Positions 1 through 14,695 of a stretch of DNA of 35,681 nucleotides are shown one piece after another (position 1 is the stretch's first letter; the number at the start of each line of letters is the position of its first letter). Source of the stretch: a virus. The stretch lies in UHGV virus genome UHGV-0164984. The stretch is one strand, 5' to 3'. The position numbers and the translations under genes were made by a program. Under the pieces are notes generated by a model. The model saw only the letters and a list, made by a program, of their open reading frames with translations, was not told where the DNA came from and searched no databases.

Positions 1-262
1 CATGGACCTGCAAAACGGTACGACGCTGGAACCCTGACTGAAAGCCGCCGTGCGTCAGGAATACGCCGATTCTAACCAGGTGAAAGTTAATGACGATGGC
101 AAATTTAATAATGATGTGGCTGGAACCCGTGGCGTTTATCAGGCTGGGATAAGGTCATCGTTTACCCCGACGTTAAGCGGTCATTTGTCAGTCAGCTATG
201 GCAATGGCGCAGGGGTAGAATCGCCGTGGAATACTCAGGCGGGTGTGGTCTGGACGTTCTGA
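1..262 (+). CDS. 3' end of host outer-membrane beta-barrel / autotransporter-like protein (partial, continues upstream of window)
   Basis: Frame open from window edge to TGA at 260-262; C-terminus ...GVVWTF ends in an aromatic residue as in OMP beta-barrels; converges on the tRNA fragment; lies outside the att junction. Confidence 0.45.
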
Positions 263-323
263 TAACAAAAAATAAACAGGCTGTGATGTGTCACGGTCTG
301 TTTATCGAATTAATTGCAGATAT

Positions 324-356
324 AAAAAAAACCAACCGTAAAGGTTGGTTTTTTCT
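324..356. terminator. Bidirectional intrinsic terminator between host gene and tRNA fragment
   Basis: A-run, stem ACCAACC (331-337) / GGTTGGT (343-349), then T-run 350-355. Confidence 0.6.
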
Positions 357-365
357 TGGGATTTT

Positions 366-414
366 TGGTCGGCACGAGAGGATTTGAACCTCCGACCCCC
401 GACACCCCATGACG
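366..414 (-). tRNA. Partial tRNA-Pro, 3' terminal 49 nt only (prophage attR-type core copy)
   Basis: Reverse complement reads CGTCATGGGGTGTCGGGGGTCGGAGGTTCAAATCCTCTCGTGCCGACCA, which matches my recollection of the 3' part of E. coli tRNA-Pro(GGG) from anticodon loop through CCA; sequence 5' of it (415 onward) does not continue a tRNA. Confidence 0.65.
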
Positions 415-943
415 CCGCTTATAAACTGCTGAGAACCGCACCATTTCTGATGTTAGGTACTATTCGCATGTATAAACAAACAGTGCTTATTTAGCAAAAT
501 CTGCTCTATGTACATCAATGACTTAGGTGGTGGTTTCTCCCCATCATCTTTTCAAGAATCACCTCAGATTGGACCGTGCATATAGGTAACTCAATCAAAT
601 CTGTAGAACAAATCGTACAATACCATATTGAGTGTTGGATGTTGGCGACAGCCCGTCTGGCAGTCATCTTGCTTTTATATGTCCCAGATAATCGCCTTCT
701 GTTCCGGCATGTGACTAAAATGCGTTCTTCGTTCATAGCAGCATACCCCTTGTTAAAGGATTACGTTGCATCGACCAGTTTAACGCATAACTCGACGCTG
801 ACGTTTTGTTTTTGAAAATGAGCTGGTTTGACATTTTTCTGAAAATTATAATGACATTAAGATTAATAAAATATATATTTCAAATAGAAATGCAAGGAAT
901 GTGTTTTAAAATGTTTACTTTCTGTTTTGAGTTAAATACAAAA

Positions 944-1720
944 ATGAAAAAATTTAAGAAACACTGTATTGGTTGTGATAAAAAAATGAAGAATCCAACT
1001 AAAGAACATTTTTGGCCCAAATGGCTTATCAAACATACCAAAATGGAAAAACACAAAATAGCTTGGTTTAACGGAAAGAGAATACCGCCGTTAACTGCCA
1101 CAATCCCTCTTTGTGCGGAATGCAATTCAGAATTAGGAGGGAAGTTAGAGGATCCAATGAAGAATCTCTTAATTGATATTGAGTCTGGTAAAGGGATATC
1201 CGATAACGAAGCTGAGGTATTTATCCGATGGGCTTGGAAAATGGAAGGATTCTCATGGAGATTGGTTCTACCTGATGGGAATTATTCATCTGTTTATACA
1301 GTTAAAGATAGGGTATTAAAGAAAATAGATCAAATTAGAGGTGAACTGGTTTTAGCTATAGCCCTTGTCGAAGATGCATACGAGGGAAGAGAATATCTTC
1401 CGATGGGATTATGCAACTTCAACGAAGTCAATGCAATCATTGTATCAGGCGTTATAGGCCATGTGGCTTTTATTGTTCTTACTGAAGATCAAATTGGTAA
1501 ACTGCCTATAAATTATTCTTATTATAGATTAAATCCCTTGCGTGATAATTTGGGGGACGCAAAACTTTTTTATCCAGCGATTGGATTCAAAACGTTTCGT
1601 CAGGCACAAAATTTAACAAGATATGCTGCGCAATTAATATCCTATTCTCTTGATAAAGAGAAAGGTGACATTTTCAAACAGATAGAAAGAGAAGAAAACG
1701 GCAATGTTATCGTTTATTAA
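944..1720 (+). CDS. AT-rich cargo protein with N-terminal HNH-like zinc-ribbon nuclease motif and unknown C-terminal domain
   Basis: ORF 806-1720; plausible ATG starts at 890, 911 or 944 (806 is TTG). Motif CIGC...KEHFWPKWL...IPLCAECNSELG resembles CxxC...EH...CxxC of HNH nucleases; strongly AT-rich versus flanks; sits between att and int. Confidence 0.55.
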   Translation: MKKFKKHCIGCDKKMKNPTKEHFWPKWLIKHTKMEKHKIAWFNGKRIPPLTATIPLCAECNSELGGKLEDPMKNLLIDIESGKGISDNEAEVFIRWAWKMEGFSWRLVLPDGNYSSVYTVKDRVLKKIDQIRGELVLAIALVEDAYEGREYLPMGLCNFNEVNAIIVSGVIGHVAFIVLTEDQIGKLPINYSYYRLNPLRDNLGDAKLFYPAIGFKTFRQAQNLTRYAAQLISYSLDKEKGDIFKQIEREENGNVIVY

Positions 1721-1841
1721 TTTTTAATAAATTGTGTTGAATTTAGTGTTTGTTTTTAATGATTGAGATTTAAATTATTTTAAGATAGACCAAATCTTGG
1801 TGACTAAATCTAAAATAAAAATTTTTATAATCTCATCTTTT

Positions 1842-1881
1842 GGCATAGAGCTACCTATCCAATCAGGATTAACTCTATGCC
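1842..1881. repeat. 9-bp perfect inverted repeat (GGCATAGAG / CTCTATGCC) with 22-nt spacer, downstream of int
   Basis: Directly read at 1842-1850 and 1873-1881; no adjacent U-tract on either strand so not a classical terminator. Confidence 0.4.
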
Positions 1882-1928
1882 ACTTTAATATTCCAAAATC
1901 CAAAGAAATTTATTGTAGAGAGGGGTTC

Positions 1929-3107
1929 TTAACCAGTTTGAATTTCTCCATGGGGAACAACAACCCAATCTATATGGTTTTGCGTGTAGATCTTCGTCGA
2001 CTTCGCATCGCTATGCGCCATTCGTCCTTGTGGATCAATGCCTTGCTGATCGAAAAGATGCGCTGCTAATGCTCTAATTTCGTGAAAGGTTGGCCTTTCA
2101 TCCATCAGAAGATTGTCGCATAAACCTAACTTGTCGCGCGTAGCTGAAAATGACCGACTCAAATAGTCTGGTGCAACCTGAGTGGGGTGTGAAACCTCTT
2201 TGCTGCGTTTAACCTGCCGTTCTGGGAGCCTGTGAACGACAAACGGACTGGCCACATTATCTCGGCTATCGTCAATTATCCGTTTCAACTCTTCACCAAT
2301 TGGTATTGCAACGTGTGATGCCTCTTTTTTTTGCACTTTTTGCCTGTGGATGTAAAGCGTCCCATATATGCCATTTTGTGGTTGTTCGAACCAGACACAT
2401 CCACATATACCGTCTTTAGGTTCGCGAATTGAGTAACGGATTCGCGATACTTCGAGTCGTGCATGTGTAGTCTGCAATGCTAGGTCCATTGCTGTTCTTA
2501 ACCATGGTGCAGCGGCCTGCCTGATAGCTATAAAATGCTCGAGTGACAGGCGCCGTCTTTTCTTCTCATCAGTCCTACGCATTTTTTTTCTGATGGCCGG
2601 GTTATCCAGCATTAGTGATTCATCGACCGCATAAGAGAACAACTTTTTAAGAAAGCTGACCTTTCTGTTCTGCACATTTGCGGATGCGCTGGCATGATAT
2701 TTGTTGATGTAGGTATTAACGTGTTCAAGTTCGATATCGCATGCCGGAACATTTACGAAAAACGCTTTTACGCGTAGAGCGTCATTTTTCCAGTCATCTA
2801 AGGTGCTTTGGGAAGGACGTTCGTCTTCGATAATCCGGGTCATTATGTGATCAACATGTTCAGCAAATGGTTTTGCTTCTCCGATAACACCGCCAGATTC
2901 TCTAATAAGATTATCTACTGATGGAGATAATTCTGGTCGCATCCTCAGGTTGTACTCTCTGGCGATTGCAATGGCTATTGCCCTATCCTTACCTATATTT
3001 TTCTTCTTTCCGGTAATAAGTGTGAATTTATAAACACCTCGATCTTTATCAAAAATCAGATAATCAGGAAGATGTCTGTATTCTTTTTTACGTGGCCTTG
3101 CCGCCAT
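1929..3107 (-). CDS. Tyrosine-type site-specific integrase
   Basis: 392-394 aa ORF beside att and xis; C-terminal region with conserved R/H/Y-type catalytic residues (…HSDAKSTKIYTQ); second ATG at 3107 has GAGGG SD at 6 nt. Confidence 0.9.
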   Translation of the reverse strand: MAARPRKKEYRHLPDYLIFDKDRGVYKFTLITGKKKNIGKDRAIAIAIAREYNLRMRPELSPSVDNLIRESGGVIGEAKPFAEHVDHIMTRIIEDERPSQSTLDDWKNDALRVKAFFVNVPACDIELEHVNTYINKYHASASANVQNRKVSFLKKLFSYAVDESLMLDNPAIRKKMRRTDEKKRRRLSLEHFIAIRQAAAPWLRTAMDLALQTTHARLEVSRIRYSIREPKDGICGCVWFEQPQNGIYGTLYIHRQKVQKKEASHVAIPIGEELKRIIDDSRDNVASPFVVHRLPERQVKRSKEVSHPTQVAPDYLSRSFSATRDKLGLCDNLLMDERPTFHEIRALAAHLFDQQGIDPQGRMAHSDAKSTKIYTQNHIDWVVVPHGEIQTG

Positions 3108-3109
3108 GG

Positions 3110-3319
3110 TCATCCCTCATTTATTAACTTGCGAACAGCTTGACTAACCATTGAGTCGACTCCCCATTTTTCTGTTTCGCAGACAAAAACAGAACCGTCC
3201 ACGATGCGTCCCATGAGTAGACCGTTCTCGACCCAGCGTTTTATCGTTCGGTTGTCAGGAATTGAGCCATTAGAGAATTCACGGCGTCCCCATTGGCTCG
3301 CTTTCATTAGTTTTGCCAT
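3110..3319 (-). CDS. Excisionase (lambda Xis-like winged helix)
   Basis: MAKLMKASQWGRREFS...TIKRWVENG... parallels lambda Xis (…LQEWNARQRRPRSLETVRRWVREC…); GGAG SD 8 nt upstream of ATG at 3319; stop adjoins int start. Confidence 0.7.
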   Translation of the reverse strand: MAKLMKASQWGRREFSNGSIPDNRTIKRWVENGLLMGRIVDGSVFVCETEKWGVDSMVSQAVRKLINEG

Positions 3320-3380
3320 GGCTGTTTCTCCACTTAGCCCGCTGCACTCGGGCAGTAATATCAAATTCCAGTCCTGATAA

Positions 3381-3596
3381 TTAATTTTGTTCTCTGGTTG
3401 CTACCTGTTTTATTGGCCTGATGCTGTCCAGGATCAGACGGCGACGCATGTTTGGCGCACCCCAACGGTAACCAGTCTTTTTGTCGTAGGATTCACAACG
3501 TCCGGCAACCCAGGACGTTTCAGTGGAATGTAATTTCATCCGCTTTTCACCGTCTCGGGTGATAACAATTCCTGTATGAGTTTTTATCACGCTCAT
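3381..3596 (-). CDS. Hypothetical small prophage protein
   Basis: 71 aa ORF in the leftward operon, start overlapping the upstream gene stop. Confidence 0.45.
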   Translation of the reverse strand: MSVIKTHTGIVITRDGEKRMKLHSTETSWVAGRCESYDKKTGYRWGAPNMRRRLILDSIRPIKQVATREQN

Positions 3597-3955
3597 TTCT
3601 TAGTCTCCGGTGCTTTCGGCATTACTGCCCAGTGAGTGATATTGACGTTTTCAAGGTCCCCGACCTGAAATGTCCACTGCCATTCTCCGGTTTCTTTTTG
3701 CCCCCATGTGTACCAGAGAGAACGCCAGCCAATCAGCCAGCCTTCTCCACTAGCATCAAATAACAGAACACTTTCATTTGCTGGTGGCAGTTCAGCTGAC
3801 ACTGGTATTATTTTGTTTTCCAGTGCCGCACATTTAGCTTCAAGCGCGTTGAATTTACGTACTAGGTACTCAGCATTTGTTTCGTTCACTTTCAGATCTC
3901 GCGGTACACATTTCCCGCGAAGAAACCCTTCCATTTCGAAAACATTCATGCGCAT
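3593..3955 (-). CDS. Hypothetical prophage protein
   Basis: 120 aa ORF, Trp-rich C-terminal half, overlaps neighbouring gene ends (operon). Confidence 0.5.
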   Translation of the reverse strand: MRMNVFEMEGFLRGKCVPRDLKVNETNAEYLVRKFNALEAKCAALENKIIPVSAELPPANESVLLFDASGEGWLIGWRSLWYTWGQKETGEWQWTFQVGDLENVNITHWAVMPKAPETKK

Positions 3956-4482
3956 TTGCGTAACTCCGATAACTCGTTAAAACGTTCCATAAACATCCCG
4001 TAGGCCTGGCCCGGTGCCAGTGGAATCACGTTGAACATCTCTGTTGCCGGGATGCCTTCCAGTACAGGCCAGAAAGAGCCATCATCAAGCCCGAGATCGC
4101 GGCGTTCGGTTGCCAGCATGATGAGATCGGCATATTTCACATGCGTGCTCATAACCGGGGGTAACCCGTATTTCTCACGGATTACGGCGTCTATTTTTTC
4201 TTCCATCCGTTTATAGTCAGGAAGAAGGCGTTTCAGTGGAGCCGGGATGTCCTGGCAATACGCTTCTGTTGCATCATGCATTAACGCTTCAAAAGCAAAT
4301 TCCTGCGGTACCAGCTGGCTGCAAAGCACCGCATGTTGGGCGACGCTGTAGAAGTGTGAAAGATGTCCTGCAAAGCGACAGATATTTGAAAGGGAAACCG
4401 CGATATCGTTAATAACGATGTCGTCTTTATTTATCCTGTCATAATAAAAATGCTTCCCGGAAAAAGTTTTAATAAATGACAT
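3946..4482 (-). CDS. HD-domain metal-dependent phosphohydrolase
   Basis: His...HD motifs (FAGHLSH...LMHDATEAY); ATG at 4482 preceded by GGAGA SD; ORF track extends to a GTG at 4509. Confidence 0.8.
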   Translation of the reverse strand: MSFIKTFSGKHFYYDRINKDDIVINDIAVSLSNICRFAGHLSHFYSVAQHAVLCSQLVPQEFAFEALMHDATEAYCQDIPAPLKRLLPDYKRMEEKIDAVIREKYGLPPVMSTHVKYADLIMLATERRDLGLDDGSFWPVLEGIPATEMFNVIPLAPGQAYGMFMERFNELSELRKCA

Positions 4483-4606
4483 TTTGTTCTCCACGTATAT
4501 GCGCTGCACCGCGCTGAATTCGGGTAAAAGGAAGCCCTCACCGTCCGGCGATTATTGAGTCAATTACATTTCCATAAATGCCCCCGTAGGGGCGGTTAGT
4601 TTCTCC

Positions 4607-7918: not shown

Positions 7919-8860
7919 ATGAGCACTAAATTAACCGGCTATGTATGGGATGGTTGCGCTGCATCAGGCATGAAGTTATCCAGCGTGGCAATTATGGCCC
8001 GCCTGGCTGATTTCAGTAATGACGAAGGTGTGTGCTGGCCATCAATTGAAACCATTGCCCGTCAGATTGGCGCGGGGATGAGTACCGTCAGAACGGCTAT
8101 CGCACGGCTGGAAGCAGAAGGCTGGTTAACGCGTAAGGCGCGTCGCCAGGGTAACCGCAATGCGTCGAATGTTTATCAGCTTAACGTTGCGAAGCTTCAG
8201 GCAGCGGCATTTTCTCAACTGTCAGATTCTGACCCGTCAAAATCTGACGCATCAAAATCTGACCCGTCAAAATTTGATGCGTCGAAATCTGGCAAAAAAG
8301 CGGGTTTTCACCCGTCAGAATCTGGCGGGGATCCGTCAGTAAAATCAAAACATGATCCGTCAGATAAAAAACCTTCTCGTCCGGACGCTTCGCAACCGGA
8401 CACGCAGACGGCTGAACAGGATTTTTTAACTCGCCATCCTGATGCGGTTGTATTCAGCCCTAAAAAGCGCCAGTGGGGAACGCAGGATGATTTGACCTGC
8501 GCACAGTGGCTCTGGAAAAAAATCATCGCCCTGTACGAGCAGGCCGCCGAATGTGACGGCGAGGTGGTTCGTCCCAAAGAACCTAACTGGACAGCCTGGG
8601 CAAACGAAATTCGCCTGATGTGTGTGCAGGATGGTCGTACTCACAAACAAATCTGCGAGATGTACAGCCGCGTCAGCCGCGATCCGTTCTGGTGCCGTAA
8701 CGTGCTCAGCCCGTCGAAGTTGCGGGAAAAATGGGATGAGCTTTCCCTGCGCTTATCGCCGTCCGTCAGCACGCACACAGAAAAACGTGAAGACCCGTAC
8801 TTCAAAGCCAGTTACGACAACGTGGACTACAGCCAGATCCCGGCAGGATTCAGGGGGTGA
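7919..8860 (+). CDS. Replication initiator (O-like, N-terminal HTH; internal iteron-encoded linker)
   Basis: 313 aa; N-terminal winged-helix-like region (…WPSIETIARQIGAGMSTVRTAIARLEAEGWL…); tandem DNA repeats inside the gene; position after cII-like gene. Confidence 0.75.
   Translation: MSTKLTGYVWDGCAASGMKLSSVAIMARLADFSNDEGVCWPSIETIARQIGAGMSTVRTAIARLEAEGWLTRKARRQGNRNASNVYQLNVAKLQAAAFSQLSDSDPSKSDASKSDPSKFDASKSGKKAGFHPSESGGDPSVKSKHDPSDKKPSRPDASQPDTQTAEQDFLTRHPDAVVFSPKKRQWGTQDDLTCAQWLWKKIIALYEQAAECDGEVVRPKEPNWTAWANEIRLMCVQDGRTHKQICEMYSRVSRDPFWCRNVLSPSKLREKWDELSLRLSPSVSTHTEKREDPYFKASYDNVDYSQIPAGFRG
8231..8373 (+). repeat. Iteron-like direct repeats (putative replication origin) inside replication initiator gene
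   Basis: About 15-bp units GACCCGTCAAAATCT / GACGCATCAAAATCT / GACCCGTCAAAATTT / GATGCGTCGAAATCT (8231-8290), further CCGTCAG-containing copies to about 8373, followed by A-rich stretch. Confidence 0.6.
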
Positions 8861-8862
8861 TC

Positions 8863-9351
8863 ATGAGTCTGTTAAATGACGTTCAGAAATTCATTGAAGC
8901 CCATCCGGGGTGTACTTCCGGAGACATTGCGGATGCTTTTGCTGGTTACTCACGGCAGCGCGTTCTGCAGTCAGCAAGCAAGTTACGTCAGAGTGGGCGT
9001 GTGGCTCACCGTTGTGAAGGAGATACACGCAGACATTTCCCGCGCCTGACTGAGAGAGCGCAGGAACCGGAACCACAACCAGTTCGTGAAACCAGACCTG
9101 TGCGCAATTTCTATGTCGGCACTAACGACCCGCGGGTGATTTTGTGCCTGGCCCGCCAGGCGGAAGAACTGGAGTCCAGGGGCTTATTTCGTCGTGCTGC
9201 AACCGTGTGGATGGCGGCATTCCGTGAAAGCCACTCCCAGCCAGAACGAAACAATTTTCTGGCGCGTCGTGAGCGGTGCTTACGGAAAAGCAGCAAGCGC
9301 GCTGCATCGGGTGAAGAGTGGTATCTGTCAGGGAATTACGTGGGGGCTTAA
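8863..9351 (+). CDS. Putative transcriptional regulator with PerC-like C-terminal region
   Basis: ATG at 8863 with GGGGG SD; C-terminal LARQAEELESRGLFRRAATVWMAAFRESHSQPERNNFLARRERCLRK resembles the PerC/Pch family as I recall it. Confidence 0.5.
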   Translation: MSLLNDVQKFIEAHPGCTSGDIADAFAGYSRQRVLQSASKLRQSGRVAHRCEGDTRRHFPRLTERAQEPEPQPVRETRPVRNFYVGTNDPRVILCLARQAEELESRGLFRRAATVWMAAFRESHSQPERNNFLARRERCLRKSSKRAASGEEWYLSGNYVGA

Positions 9352-12242: not shown

Positions 12243-12257
12243 GGGGCGGTGCCCCTT
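12230..12257 (-). terminator. Weak hairpin terminator between Q and the convergent MBL gene
   Basis: Stem AAGGGGC / GCCCCTT (12241-12257) with a U-rich stretch on the minus-strand side. Confidence 0.35.
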
Positions 12258-13347
12258 ATAAGCAAACAGCAGCGTAATGTGTTTCAACCTTAGGACTAGA
12301 CGTTAAGCAATTACTAACAGCAACTATTCCAAATTTATTGTTATTATTTGAAAATGAAACTGAACTTTTCATCTTCGCTAATATGCTCCGTGCTTCAGCA
12401 ATCGCAGGTGATTTTTCTTGAGCGTTATCACTTTTAGGCATCGATGTACAGTATAATGCTGATGATTTTGATTTGTAGAGGTCGATCATATCCTGCCGTG
12501 GTAGTGATGATTTATCATAAGTGGTTAAAATCGAAATAGGGTCTTTTTTGATTAGCTTGTTCCATGTTTCCTCATGAAAGCCTGTTTGGGAACCGTGGTG
12601 TGGAAGTTTGAAAATACCTGCTAAGTTTGGTTCTGGACGATTTATTGCATTGCAAACGGAATTCCATCCAGTGTTTTTACTAACTTCTAAATCTGCGCCT
12701 AATAATACTTCATTATTTTCTGATGTTGGAGAGCATATTCTGATTACAACGCAGTAGTGATTAGGATTAACTAATTTAGCAGACATGGCTATTTCGCTAA
12801 AATTTGATGATAATTTTGTAGAGTTTGCGAATTCAAGATCAGAGTTTGTTATATCCATATCAGAAGGCGATAACGAATGTACTTGAATATTCTCGCTGCT
12901 TTTGAATAGTATGCAGTCTTTTTTTGCATGGACAAGACGATCATTTTTGTGCAAATCATAGAATAAAGACATGACCTTGTTTATTTCTTTAGTTTTTGCC
13001 ATATCCTCACCATTAACACTTAGTGCATTAATATATCCTCTAAATTCAGATGTGTTCAATGCTGCGCTAATTACAACTTTTGCATTTTTGCAACTATTAA
13101 TAATTTCGGCTATCCCTTTAATATGATCATCGTGAAAATGACTAATGACTATCAGTTTTACTTCATCTTGTGGATTAACACCTTTTTCTTTCAGATAATC
13201 TAATGCTGCGGGGCGTTTATTATCATTTAAACAGGAATCAATAATCATCCATTCATTTAACCCAAGACGAACGACAATTGATTCGCCAATACCTTTACCA
13301 AAAACAATTGTTTCACAGATAGAGTTTTGAACAGTAGGCACCTGCAT
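12256..13347 (-). CDS. Metallo-beta-lactamase-fold hydrolase (distal gene of AT-rich cassette)
   Basis: 363 aa; HxHxDH motif SHFHDDH encoded at 13123-13143; additional His (KLPHHGSQ); AT-rich. Confidence 0.8.
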   Translation of the reverse strand: MQVPTVQNSICETIVFGKGIGESIVVRLGLNEWMIIDSCLNDNKRPAALDYLKEKGVNPQDEVKLIVISHFHDDHIKGIAEIINSCKNAKVVISAALNTSEFRGYINALSVNGEDMAKTKEINKVMSLFYDLHKNDRLVHAKKDCILFKSSENIQVHSLSPSDMDITNSDLEFANSTKLSSNFSEIAMSAKLVNPNHYCVVIRICSPTSENNEVLLGADLEVSKNTGWNSVCNAINRPEPNLAGIFKLPHHGSQTGFHEETWNKLIKKDPISILTTYDKSSLPRQDMIDLYKSKSSALYCTSMPKSDNAQEKSPAIAEARSILAKMKSSVSFSNNNNKFGIVAVSNCLTSSPKVETHYAAVCL

Positions 13348-13370
13348 TCACCGTATTGCGTAATTTCTAA

Positions 13371-13943
13371 TTATTGTTTAAAAATTCTTCTTAGGCGAAA
13401 TTCGGATACTCTTTTTTCTTGTCCAAATAAAGTTTTTTCCATACCAACATACCAATAAAAAATAGCGTTTTCGACAAGTTTTTGTTGATCGCTTTTACTA
13501 AATTCATCTGAAGAGAACGTTATCTCATCAATGAATTCATGAGAGTTTATATCATATACTCTAGCATGTATTTCTTTATTTGATTTCATATTGACAATTT
13601 TGTCAATTATACCATAAGTATCTAATGCCTTTTCAAGAAAGGTTATTTTTTCTTTAAGTCTTGCCTTGAGTTTTTTATGCTGAGTTCTATTTTTCACTCC
13701 TTTTTGTGTAGATGGGAATGGTTGCGGAGTAGGTATTTCAATTATATTTGTTGAATATTTTGAGCTGCAAGTTTCTTGCTGCTGTTCAAATGTTTCAGAA
13801 TAATTTTCAAAACCTGTCTTAATTATACAGGAAAGAGTTATGTTGTGGGTCTTTACAAATGTTTCAATGTTTTTTTCTTTTTTTGTTACGCAACGTGTAT
13901 TACTAAGGCTGGAAGAATTTTCAGGATAGGTTAATATATTCAT
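13371..13943 (-). CDS. Hypothetical protein (middle gene of AT-rich cassette)
   Basis: 190 aa ORF; start overlaps the upstream gene stop (ATGA at 13940-13943), implying translational coupling. Confidence 0.65.
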   Translation of the reverse strand: MNILTYPENSSSLSNTRCVTKKEKNIETFVKTHNITLSCIIKTGFENYSETFEQQQETCSSKYSTNIIEIPTPQPFPSTQKGVKNRTQHKKLKARLKEKITFLEKALDTYGIIDKIVNMKSNKEIHARVYDINSHEFIDEITFSSDEFSKSDQQKLVENAIFYWYVGMEKTLFGQEKRVSEFRLRRIFKQ

Positions 13944-14695
13944 GATAGAATCCGCTTAAACATTTGTTCATGGCTGAGGATATCATTCTTAATTGCTGCG
14001 GAAATATGTTTTTGAATTATATTTGGGAGTAATTGAGTGAATGCAACAGCGTCACGAATATCTTTCAAAGCTAGATCGTGATTGTATTGAACGTTTAAAC
14101 CAAATACATCTGGACTAACTTTTCTATACGAAGCATAAGAGACATTGATAGCCTCTTTGTAAATTGATTTATCTTCCTTGTTAGAGTTTTCTATTGCAAT
14201 GACTAAATTTCTCATCCCATAATGATATTCAACTTCATCCTGAAGTATTTCTGATTTATTGTGTTCTTGCCAATAAATTTTGGGGACTAATGCATCTCCT
14301 AACTGATTCCAGTTGGTTTCATTATTAAAATGATAATCAAAAAGGGTGTTTATTCCAACAGCTTGTGTCTCAGAATGAGGAAACATAGAAAATATTGATG
14401 ACACTAAGTCTGCCAAGGAATTTTCAAGCCCTGTTTTTTTCAGTTGAAATACTACTTTTGTTGGTATGCACGTAATCTCAATCCAACCGTAATCTGTTGT
14501 TATTGAATCACCATCAAAAGTTGTGTTTGAATTTGCTATATCTTCCTCTCTTAGCAAATCGTATCTTCTAAACCATTCAGATGAAAACATCAATGGAGTA
14601 ATGATGTTAGAGATCCATACAACATTAATCGTATGCTTAATAAGTTTGAAAGTCATAAATTGTTCTTGGCCCTCAGAATGAAAACCTAAGTGCAT
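13940..14695 (-). CDS. Hypothetical protein (first gene of AT-rich cassette)
   Basis: 251 aa ORF; alternative ATG at 14656 preceded by GAGGG; no recognisable motif. Confidence 0.65.
   Translation of the reverse strand: MHLGFHSEGQEQFMTFKLIKHTINVVWISNIITPLMFSSEWFRRYDLLREEDIANSNTTFDGDSITTDYGWIEITCIPTKVVFQLKKTGLENSLADLVSSIFSMFPHSETQAVGINTLFDYHFNNETNWNQLGDALVPKIYWQEHNKSEILQDEVEYHYGMRNLVIAIENSNKEDKSIYKEAINVSYASYRKVSPDVFGLNVQYNHDLALKDIRDAVAFTQLLPNIIQKHISAAIKNDILSHEQMFKRILS

Follow-up and report, generated by a model that had tools for sequence, protein, structure and literature searches.

A candidate single-protein anti-phage nuclease of the HNH type carried between the att site and the integrase gene of an Escherichia coli prophage

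What does an AT-rich gene do for a prophage, or for its host, when it lies between the attachment (att) site and the integrase gene? The question is raised by the virus genome UHGV-0164984, a stretch of 35,681 nucleotides (hereafter the window), in which a gene on the plus strand that ends at position 1720 is flanked by the 3' half of a tRNA-Pro gene (366-411) and by int (1929-3113, on the minus strand); an original prediction made from the sequence had placed it between att and the integrase. That prediction took the gene for a candidate single-protein defence system or toxin. We have found that the gene is exchangeable cargo, that it is intact in every copy examined and that it encodes a protein accepted here, by predicted fold and motif, as a member of the HNH/His-Me superfamily. 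We consider it somewhat probable (about 0.55) that the gene is a 'moron', expressed in the lysogen, that specifies a self-contained single-protein anti-phage defence nuclease, a reading for which we draw on genomic context and on sequence motifs.

An intact gene in a variable cargo slot

The open reading frame (ORF) at 806-1720 on the plus strand comprises 304 codons from a TTG start, and by our own estimate the chance of an open frame of this length in DNA of 35% GC is about 1e-9 per start. It is AT-rich and runs opposite to int, as had been claimed: its GC content is 35.5% (29.7% at third codon positions), that of int 44.0% and that of the window 50.3%. The start at 806, however, is probably 138 nt too early, and the first 46 codons are probably untranslated. 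Homologues from Marinomonas, Porticoccus, Aeromonas, Vibrio and metagenomes begin with MKKFKK (in the case of Aeromonas and Vibrio, after correction of the gene calls), which corresponds to the ATG at 944; from this agreement among several genera, ATG 944 is most likely the true start, giving a protein of 258 amino acids (aa). The Prokaryotic Genome Annotation Pipeline (PGAP) instead picks the ATG at 851. Promoter-like sites are no more numerous in this region than in shuffled sequence, and we regard the best of them, which precedes ATG 944 (Table 1), as no more than a suggestion.

The gene is under purifying selection. Between the copy in the window and that in Salmonella there are three synonymous and two non-synonymous changes (ratio of non-synonymous to synonymous rates, dN/dS, 0.17), and in comparisons with the Vibrio, Marinomonas, Porticoccus and Aeromonas homologues the proportion of synonymous differences (pS) is 0.75-0.90, which is saturated, while that of non-synonymous differences (pN) is 0.18-0.23; the Marinomonas-Porticoccus pair gave 0.04 in the same analysis. 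Disruption of the ORF in related prophages would have spoken against the original prediction, and the ORF is intact in all copies that we inspected. An E. coli cluster of 187 aa (P0009), labelled 'truncated', had seemed to be a disrupted version and was set aside as a gene-caller artefact, the full ORF being intact upstream.

We have obtained evidence that the interval between att and int is a site at which cargo is exchanged, which the original prediction had put forward on general grounds. The window represents E. coli chromosome, and over 300-3400 it matches the yejO-proL region of strain MLI107 at a reported identity of 100.0%, the one mismatch being in the cargo module. Homology to other prophages at yejO/proL ends at 543/544 and restarts near the int stop codon (at 1929 against the related locus L002, at 1941 against L003), and five mutually unrelated AT-rich alleles occupy the slot thus delimited in related prophages. 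The four other alleles (in L002, L003, L043 and L044) encode products of 239 aa, 66 and 283 aa, 283 aa, and 256 and 118 aa, all annotated as hypothetical; the three products of the L002 and L003 alleles gave no significant match to Pfam or PADLOC. This diversity is that of five individually inspected loci, a search with 412-4509 being dominated by the widespread yfdR region, and in the loci examined the slot was never empty. The module carried in the window is present in 5 of 5426 complete E. coli genomes, at the same site each time. Its copies in E. coli, Salmonella and other assemblies are ungapped and 98.5-99.9% identical, the Salmonella module (98.5%, ungapped) lying beside the same type of integrase, and Salmonella, Enterobacter and Klebsiella have copies of the gene with an identity of 90% or more. 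We also note one E. coli assembly (L033 3773-4949) in which gene calling splits int into two ORFs (of 158 and 192 aa) but leaves the HNH-like gene intact; upstream of the module are a second integrase and an AlpA-like gene. This arrangement suggests a decaying or tandem element that has retained the cargo.

A constant HNH module and a family-specific C-terminal domain

The N-terminal CxxC...EH...CxxC arrangement on which the original prediction turned is present: CIGC occupies aa 8-11 (nt 965-976), KEHFWPKWL occupies aa 20-28 (nt 1001-1027) and CAEC-N occupies aa 57-61 (nt 1112-1126). Its full grammar is C8xxC11 ... E21-H22 ... C57xxC60-N61-xxx-G65. When the first 182 relatives retrieved were scanned with a regular expression, all 96 that display the pattern CxxC...[D/E/N]H...CxxC[N/H/D] had EH and N at its variable positions; the remaining 86 are mostly fragments or gene calls that start past the first CxxC, and the full-length member P0091 has lost the motif. 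The HNH segment is strongly basic (isoelectric point 9.5, charge +8), and the invariant residues of the family include G84, A90, R95, W98, K99 and W105, which lie within or beside a helix at 87-108. An AlphaFold model of the 258-aa protein (predicted local distance difference test, pLDDT, 89.2; predicted template modelling score, pTM, 0.89) matches only HNH nucleases, among them the defence effectors Cap5, McrA and PtuB as well as IscB, T5 SciA, GVE2, Gme and ZRANB3. The features that define HNH and His-Me finger nucleases can be recognised in it, namely a beta-beta-alpha-metal fold, a candidate general-base histidine after a glutamate (E21-H22) and a candidate metal-ligand asparagine (N61).

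Searches with hidden Markov models against HNH and Abi families, which had been proposed as a check, matched HNH_5 (PF14279) below threshold (16.4 bits against a gathering score of 27.5, E 0.0087) and gave no Abi family among the Pfam matches. HNH_5 is the only recurrent Pfam match, found for 20 of 27 members at E <= 0.1 (best 9.5e-4) and at threshold for none, so that by the curated score the protein falls outside that family; the other Pfam match of the protein, Orthopox_B11R, is likewise below threshold. As had also been stated, a long region without assignment follows the motif: about 190 residues belong to no Pfam family, and the last 150 or so match no solved fold. The C-terminal domain is not basic, and no reader of the kind that is joined to a nuclease in Type IV restriction enzymes (a McrA N-terminal domain, SRA, EVE/PUA-like or SBD) was found in the protein.

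The architecture of the family appears to be modular. A word-indexed search of 5.8 billion protein clusters (90% identity) returned 34 homologue clusters, the largest of 123 members and all of them unnamed or 'hypothetical'; one spans Salmonella, E. coli, Enterobacter and Klebsiella, and a second spans V. parahaemolyticus, V. coralliilyticus and V. cholerae, with one V. cholerae contig listed. An exhaustive profile search, in which representatives stand for clusters at 50% identity, returned 64 representatives at E < 1e-30, 121 at < 1e-10 and 1024 at < 1e-3. Among the matches listed, those at E < 1e-10 are for the most part members of the family, either full-length (about 230-290 aa) or fragmentary, and the others are mostly proteins of about 300-400 aa that align only at profile positions of about 5-105. 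In keeping with this, hhalign against a sister family of about 350 aa (e.g. P0141), every member of which is 'hypothetical', aligns only the first 105 or so columns (probability 99.1%, E 8e-19), which indicates that the HNH-plus-helix module is constant and the C-terminal domain that follows it varies. The module is common to more than 900 other protein clusters, whose C-terminal parts are not detectably homologous to the one described here. PHROGs contributed one family of unknown function (PHROG 10503), matched at the N-terminus only, and a structure search of BFVD contributed one uncharacterised full-length analogue; the PDB, searched by sequence with the protein alone and with each of two profiles, held no meaningful relative, and a literature search by accession found nothing.

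When 50,697 phage records were searched with tblastn, no full-length homologue was found, and the N-terminal part matched one protein only, in two records of phage R18C. This protein of 246 aa (QDP43509.1; L010 3908-4648) has only the N-terminal HNH module in common with ours (31.7% identity over aa 8-108), and in this P2-like phage it is encoded between the genes for tail completion and baseplate V, which we read as a moron position. A further side observation concerns P0221 (215 member sequences), from the sister family of about 350-400 aa: on gut metagenome contigs (L037 13938-14515 and L038 9145-9722) its gene precedes a Cas9 gene by about 6 kb, and between the two are a 23S_rRNA_IVP-family gene and several unknown genes.

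Genomic settings of the homologues and the case for a defence nuclease

Homologues are found in a range of mobile and defence-related settings. In V. parahaemolyticus (L004) two attC sites of a long cassette array, 917 nt apart, enclose the homologue and no other ORF; the attC-type repeats, at 7940-8082 and 8857-8969, belong to a family with 16-24 repeats, and the homologue starts about 20 nt past the upstream one. As a single ORF bounded by attC within an array of such repeats, the Vibrio homologue qualifies as an integron gene cassette. The next cassette carries PDC-S31, a candidate system in PADLOC, and one with HEPN_AbiV is close by. The Aeromonas copy is at a prophage end. On a metagenomic contig (L012) only 25 nt separate the homologue from an hsdR-hsdM-hsdS-mrr array that precedes it on the same strand, and a ParE-like toxin-antitoxin pair is adjacent. 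In Marinomonas profundimaris (L006 7225-9599) an islet of three genes has been found between dctQ and a pst-like operon for a phosphate ABC transporter; in it the homologue is flanked by an unknown 217-aa gene and by a 235-aa gene of the uracil-DNA glycosylase (UDG) superfamily. UDG-like glycosylases have been shown to act against phages (bioRxiv 10.1101/2025.10.29.685425). A further 16 loci are those of Ignavibacteria, Chloroflexi, Acidobacteriota, Verrucomicrobia, Alphaproteobacteria and Firmicutes, and in 15 of them the GC content of the gene is below that of its surroundings. Among the 135 neighbour proteins of these 16 loci no family occurs more than four times, the recurring ones being resolvase and helicase domains; defence-related neighbours include DruE (2 kb upstream, L031), PDC-S73 (L028), PD-T4-6 and a Schlafen-type helicase. 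The gene is thus found in defence islands or cargo hotspots of mobile elements (the prophage slot, the integron, the hsdRMS-mrr locus and the DruE, PDC-S73 and PD-T4-6 loci).

These settings also bear on whether the gene acts alone. All-against-all BLAST of the neighbours at the 16 genome loci and 8 other loci revealed no conserved partner, and in Vibrio the gene makes up a one-gene integron cassette, so that the description of it as a single-gene unit holds. The conserved adjacent gene that would mark a toxin-immunity or toxin-antitoxin pair was, by the same token, not seen. We note that a distant homologue (38% identity) found as the same sequence on two contigs (L015 2892-3839 and L016 2-985), downstream of groES-groEL, is preceded by an unannotated gene of 315-327 aa whose stop overlaps the start of the homologue by 4 nt; this overlap is the only hint of a partner gene, and it is absent from the other loci compared.

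We favour a stand-alone defence nuclease because the gene occurs in a cargo slot, in an integron and in a restriction island, because it is rare and patchily distributed, and because its architecture is that of a constant effector with a variable C-terminus. The cassettes of chromosomal and mobile integrons have proved rich in small defence systems, and about 18-20% of those tested protected against phage (bioRxiv 10.1101/2024.07.02.601686; 10.1101/2025.10.29.685425). According to the mechanism that we propose, the basic N-terminal 110 or so residues would form a zinc-stabilised beta-beta-alpha-metal (HNH) nuclease, with a structural zinc held by C8, C11, C57 and C60, H22 acting as the general base, and E21 and N61 as ligands of a catalytic Mg2+ or Mn2+ ion; we take the counterparts of E21, H22 and N61 in T4 endonuclease VII to be D40, H41 and N62. 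The C-terminal domain would pack on the helical linker and either limit the nuclease to a phage-specific substrate or hold it inactive pending a phage-derived cue. A candidate nuclease that is mobile alone, with no immunity partner, must itself spare self DNA, through substrate specificity or through inactivity until triggered. Cleavage of DNA would then halt the replication of a superinfecting phage, by direct restriction of phage DNA in the manner of a Type IV enzyme or by abortive, indiscriminate cutting, and we regard these two as about equally likely. The mrr and UDG-like neighbours, together with the precedent of McrA, hint at a restriction-like mode directed at modified DNA; counting against that mode, the C-terminal domain is neither a recognisable base reader nor basic. 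Nuclease activity, a regulatory or sensing role for the C-terminal domain and a defence phenotype are all things that we infer here.

Several observations weigh against this reading. The support for it comes from context and motifs and not from function, and the reading has to suppose some means by which self DNA is spared. The C-terminal domain, when compared with solved structures, shows no likeness to the McrA reader, to a sensor or to a modified-base reader. The protein matches no family in PADLOC-DB 2.0.0 (PADLOC v2) even at E <= 10 and none in NCBIfam, and Pfam only below threshold. Many neighbourhoods of the homologues consist of housekeeping genes alone, the association with defence genes is a raw observation of proximity, and the neighbourhoods of the sister family offer no clear defence context. 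Nevertheless, no homology of the protein itself to a housekeeping enzyme was found, and of what the original prediction proposed, the HNH domain, the status as cargo and the autonomy of the gene all hold, with defence being the part that is drawn from context.

Free-standing HNH genes are classic homing endonucleases, and a selfish homing-type or mobility-associated enzyme, one that spreads by cutting empty sites and brings the host no benefit, would be free-standing, AT-rich and polymorphic in presence and absence, just as the gene in the window is. Serine recombinase or resolvase genes also lie nearby (4 of the 135 neighbour proteins scanned). Against this, the slot always held cargo in the loci examined and accepts five unrelated alternatives; Pfam revealed none of the DNA-binding modules that homing enzymes would be expected to have (NUMOD, IENR1, AP2), and empty-site polymorphism in phage genomes was not seen either, the phage records being devoid of a full-length homologue. 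Occurrence as an integron cassette and in an array that resembles a restriction-modification operon, and strong purifying selection across phyla, likewise point away from homing, which we judge improbable. A nuclease of the phage life cycle, acting like endonuclease VII or NinG/Rap on branched recombination or replication intermediates or else associated with the terminase, would account for the CxxC...(D/E)H...CxxCN motif, which we take to be of the endonuclease VII type, and lambdoid phages do encode His-Me recombination nucleases; one of them, NinG, is mentioned in bioRxiv 10.1101/2024.07.02.601686. The position of the gene is hard to reconcile with such a role, as it is in a variable slot on the strand opposite to int, outside the nin/recombination and packaging regions (which rules out a terminase-associated HNH protein), related prophages dispense with it, and homologues occur in settings that are not those of a phage (an integron cassette, a restriction-modification island and chromosomal islets). 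We give a life-cycle function little credence.

HNH domains are also common toxin warheads, and the protein might be a toxin or addiction factor that stabilises the prophage or integron array, or attacks competitors, with a control element that goes unrecognised, perhaps an RNA or a host factor. The E. coli module has 400 bp of unexplained upstream sequence (544-943), a ParE-like pair is found beside one homologue (L012), and chromosomal integrons often contain toxin-antitoxin cassettes (bioRxiv 10.1101/2024.07.02.601686). Yet no conserved immunity or antitoxin gene accompanies the family, the leader of the Vibrio cassette, at about 20 nt, is too small for a second gene or a sizeable RNA, and 300-2000 gave no match to Rfam and contains no repeats of note, which makes an RNA partner unlikely. 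A lipoprotein or secreted toxin was rejected, no secretion signal being apparent when the sequence was read by eye (no prediction tool was used). A toxin or addiction role is, on balance, a minor contender. Finally, inactive HNH folds exist, and a catalytically inert zinc-ribbon or HNH-fold regulator that binds DNA or protein (acting on prophage or host genes or on another defence system) would be consistent with the sub-threshold match to HNH_5 and with the fact that the middle structural asparagine of the canonical HNH motif is not conserved. In the family and its sister families, however, the Glu-His pair and the metal-ligand asparagine are kept wherever the motif pattern is found, which is hard to explain without catalysis, and we consider an inert protein highly improbable. 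A Type II restriction enzyme was ruled out, there being no methyltransferase.

Among known systems the closest include Cap5, the HNH-SAVED effector of cyclic-oligonucleotide-based antiphage signalling systems (CBASS), which is matched at the level of the HNH fold. The Type IV restriction enzyme EcoKMcrA has an N-terminal 5-methylcytosine reader and a C-terminal HNH domain, the reverse of the order seen here; the two proteins have no detectable sequence relationship, and our C-terminal domain is unlike the McrA reader. PtuB, the HNH protein of Septu and of retrons Eco7 and Ec83, needs the PtuA ATPase, in some systems alongside a retron, in contrast to the one-gene cassette and lack of a conserved partner found here. 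With T4 endonuclease VII and HNH_5 the protein has the grammar CxxC, (D/E)H, CxxC-N-xxx-G in common, and we presume its motif to be of the T4 endonuclease VII type (D40-H41 ... C-x2-C-N62); it differs in having about 150 additional C-terminal residues of no known fold and a genomic role unlike that of a phage resolvase. The R18C protein and the sister family of about 350 aa have the N-terminal HNH-plus-helix module of about 105 residues in common with it, with C-terminal parts that cannot be aligned; they too are uncharacterised, they occur in contexts that have no clear connection with defence, and a PADLOC scan of the sister family gave no match. Sirona and Nemetona, described by Darracq et al., are single-gene defence cassettes of the V. 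cholerae chromosomal integron that have been found experimentally to protect against phage and that occur in many genera (bioRxiv 10.1101/2024.07.02.601686). Like the protein described here they are small single proteins, distantly related to His-Me/HNH nucleases and carried as integron cassettes, but their description likens them to a Type II restriction domain and to lambda NinG, and not to HNH_5. Moreover, no homologue cluster is as large as we would expect for a gene carried by the much-sequenced seventh-pandemic V. cholerae lineage (the largest has 123 members), and so, on their descriptions and on cluster sizes, it seems unlikely that our protein is Sirona or Nemetona.

It is conceivable, although we rather doubt it, that the shared module of about 105 residues marks a large undescribed superfamily of one-protein immune sensors, in which a constant nuclease would be combined with interchangeable C-terminal sensors of new folds. 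Were this so, the 258-aa family would be the prophage and integron branch of enterobacteria and vibrios, sensing a phage cue through a structurally unprecedented domain. If the favoured reading, that of a self-contained defence nuclease, is correct, then a compact immune nuclease of 258 aa encoded by a single gene has been missed by current defence annotation resources, PADLOC v2 included, and moves among prophages, integron cassettes and restriction islands, with Enterobacteriaceae (Salmonella and Klebsiella among them), vibrios and distant phyla as carriers. The C-terminal domain would then represent a new sensing or regulatory fold, the shared N-terminal module would point to about 1000 more candidate proteins, and the att-int interval of the yejO/proL prophage family would be a discovery site, with four more unrelated unannotated alleles. 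If it is wrong, the protein is another orphan HNH protein of limited interest. The gene is rare and annotated as hypothetical everywhere, and while it will not surprise the field we think it a worthwhile and inexpensive candidate for experiment.

The surrounding prophage

The features of the window that bear on the gene are collected in Table 1.

Table 1. Coordinates of the cargo gene, its parts and the flanking features in the window
Feature	Position	Strand	Basis or remark
End of the yejO autotransporter gene	1-262		
3' half of tRNA-Pro (proL), attL core; left prophage boundary	366..411	-	tRNA 3' end reads ...GGTTCAAATCCTCTCGTGCCGACCA
Phage-side att arm, common to related prophages	412..543	.	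blastn against L002 and L003, 92-97% identity, ending at 543/544
Hypervariable cargo slot, here a 1385-bp AT-rich module of 34.1% GC	544..1928	.	Homology breakpoints against related prophages
Promoter-like site ATGACA-17-TATATT, upstream of 944	851..879	+	Consensus scan, 10/12 matches
Probable coding sequence of the 258-aa HNH-like protein	944..1720	+	Homologue starts; mechanical ORF from 806, PGAP start 851
HNH (beta-beta-alpha-metal) core: C8xxC11, E21-H22, C57xxC60-N61	965..1126	+	
Conserved helical segment, aa 81-110 (SDNEAE..RW.WK..G..W), part of the shared N-terminal module	1184..1273	+	
Family-specific C-terminal alpha/beta domain with long terminal helix, aa 111-258	1274..1717	+	
Tyrosine integrase with lambda-type arm-binding domain	1929..3113	-	Pfam Arm-DNA-bind_1, E 5.8e-6, and weak Phage_integrase; PGAP agrees
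Small gene next after int, 69-aa coding sequence by PGAP	3110..3319	-	Weak sub-threshold DUF4817 helix-turn-helix match

We assign the left prophage boundary from a sequence alignment in which three related loci are identical through position 411 or thereabouts and diverge beyond it, the end of perfect identity marking the attL core. ARAGORN found no intact tRNA in the window or in the related loci L001-L003; contrary to this, PGAP labels a 78-nt 'tRNA-Pro' in strain ET791 (L003 2067-2144, equivalent to 366-443 of the window). An intact copy of tRNA-Pro presumably lies at the far end of the prophage, outside the window. The adjoining yejO gene (L001 372-2963; window 1-262) is annotated as a pseudogene, with an internal stop, a frameshift or both, in most of the strains inspected and is intact in strain 100181. 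A 73-aa ORF at 515-736 on the minus strand had no match in profile scans. The gene that follows int may, judging from its position and from its weak helix-turn-helix match, encode an excisionase, and beyond it lies a CPS-53-like early region with yfdR.

Lastly, we note a second AT-rich island in the prophage (12256-14695, minus strand; GC 0.31-0.34) that has three ORFs in the same orientation, with products of 363, 190 and 251 aa. The largest of these products matches the PADLOC models RTasMBL (E 4.4e-12) and LmuA (E 1.7e-7), and the island is probably a further cargo or defence module.

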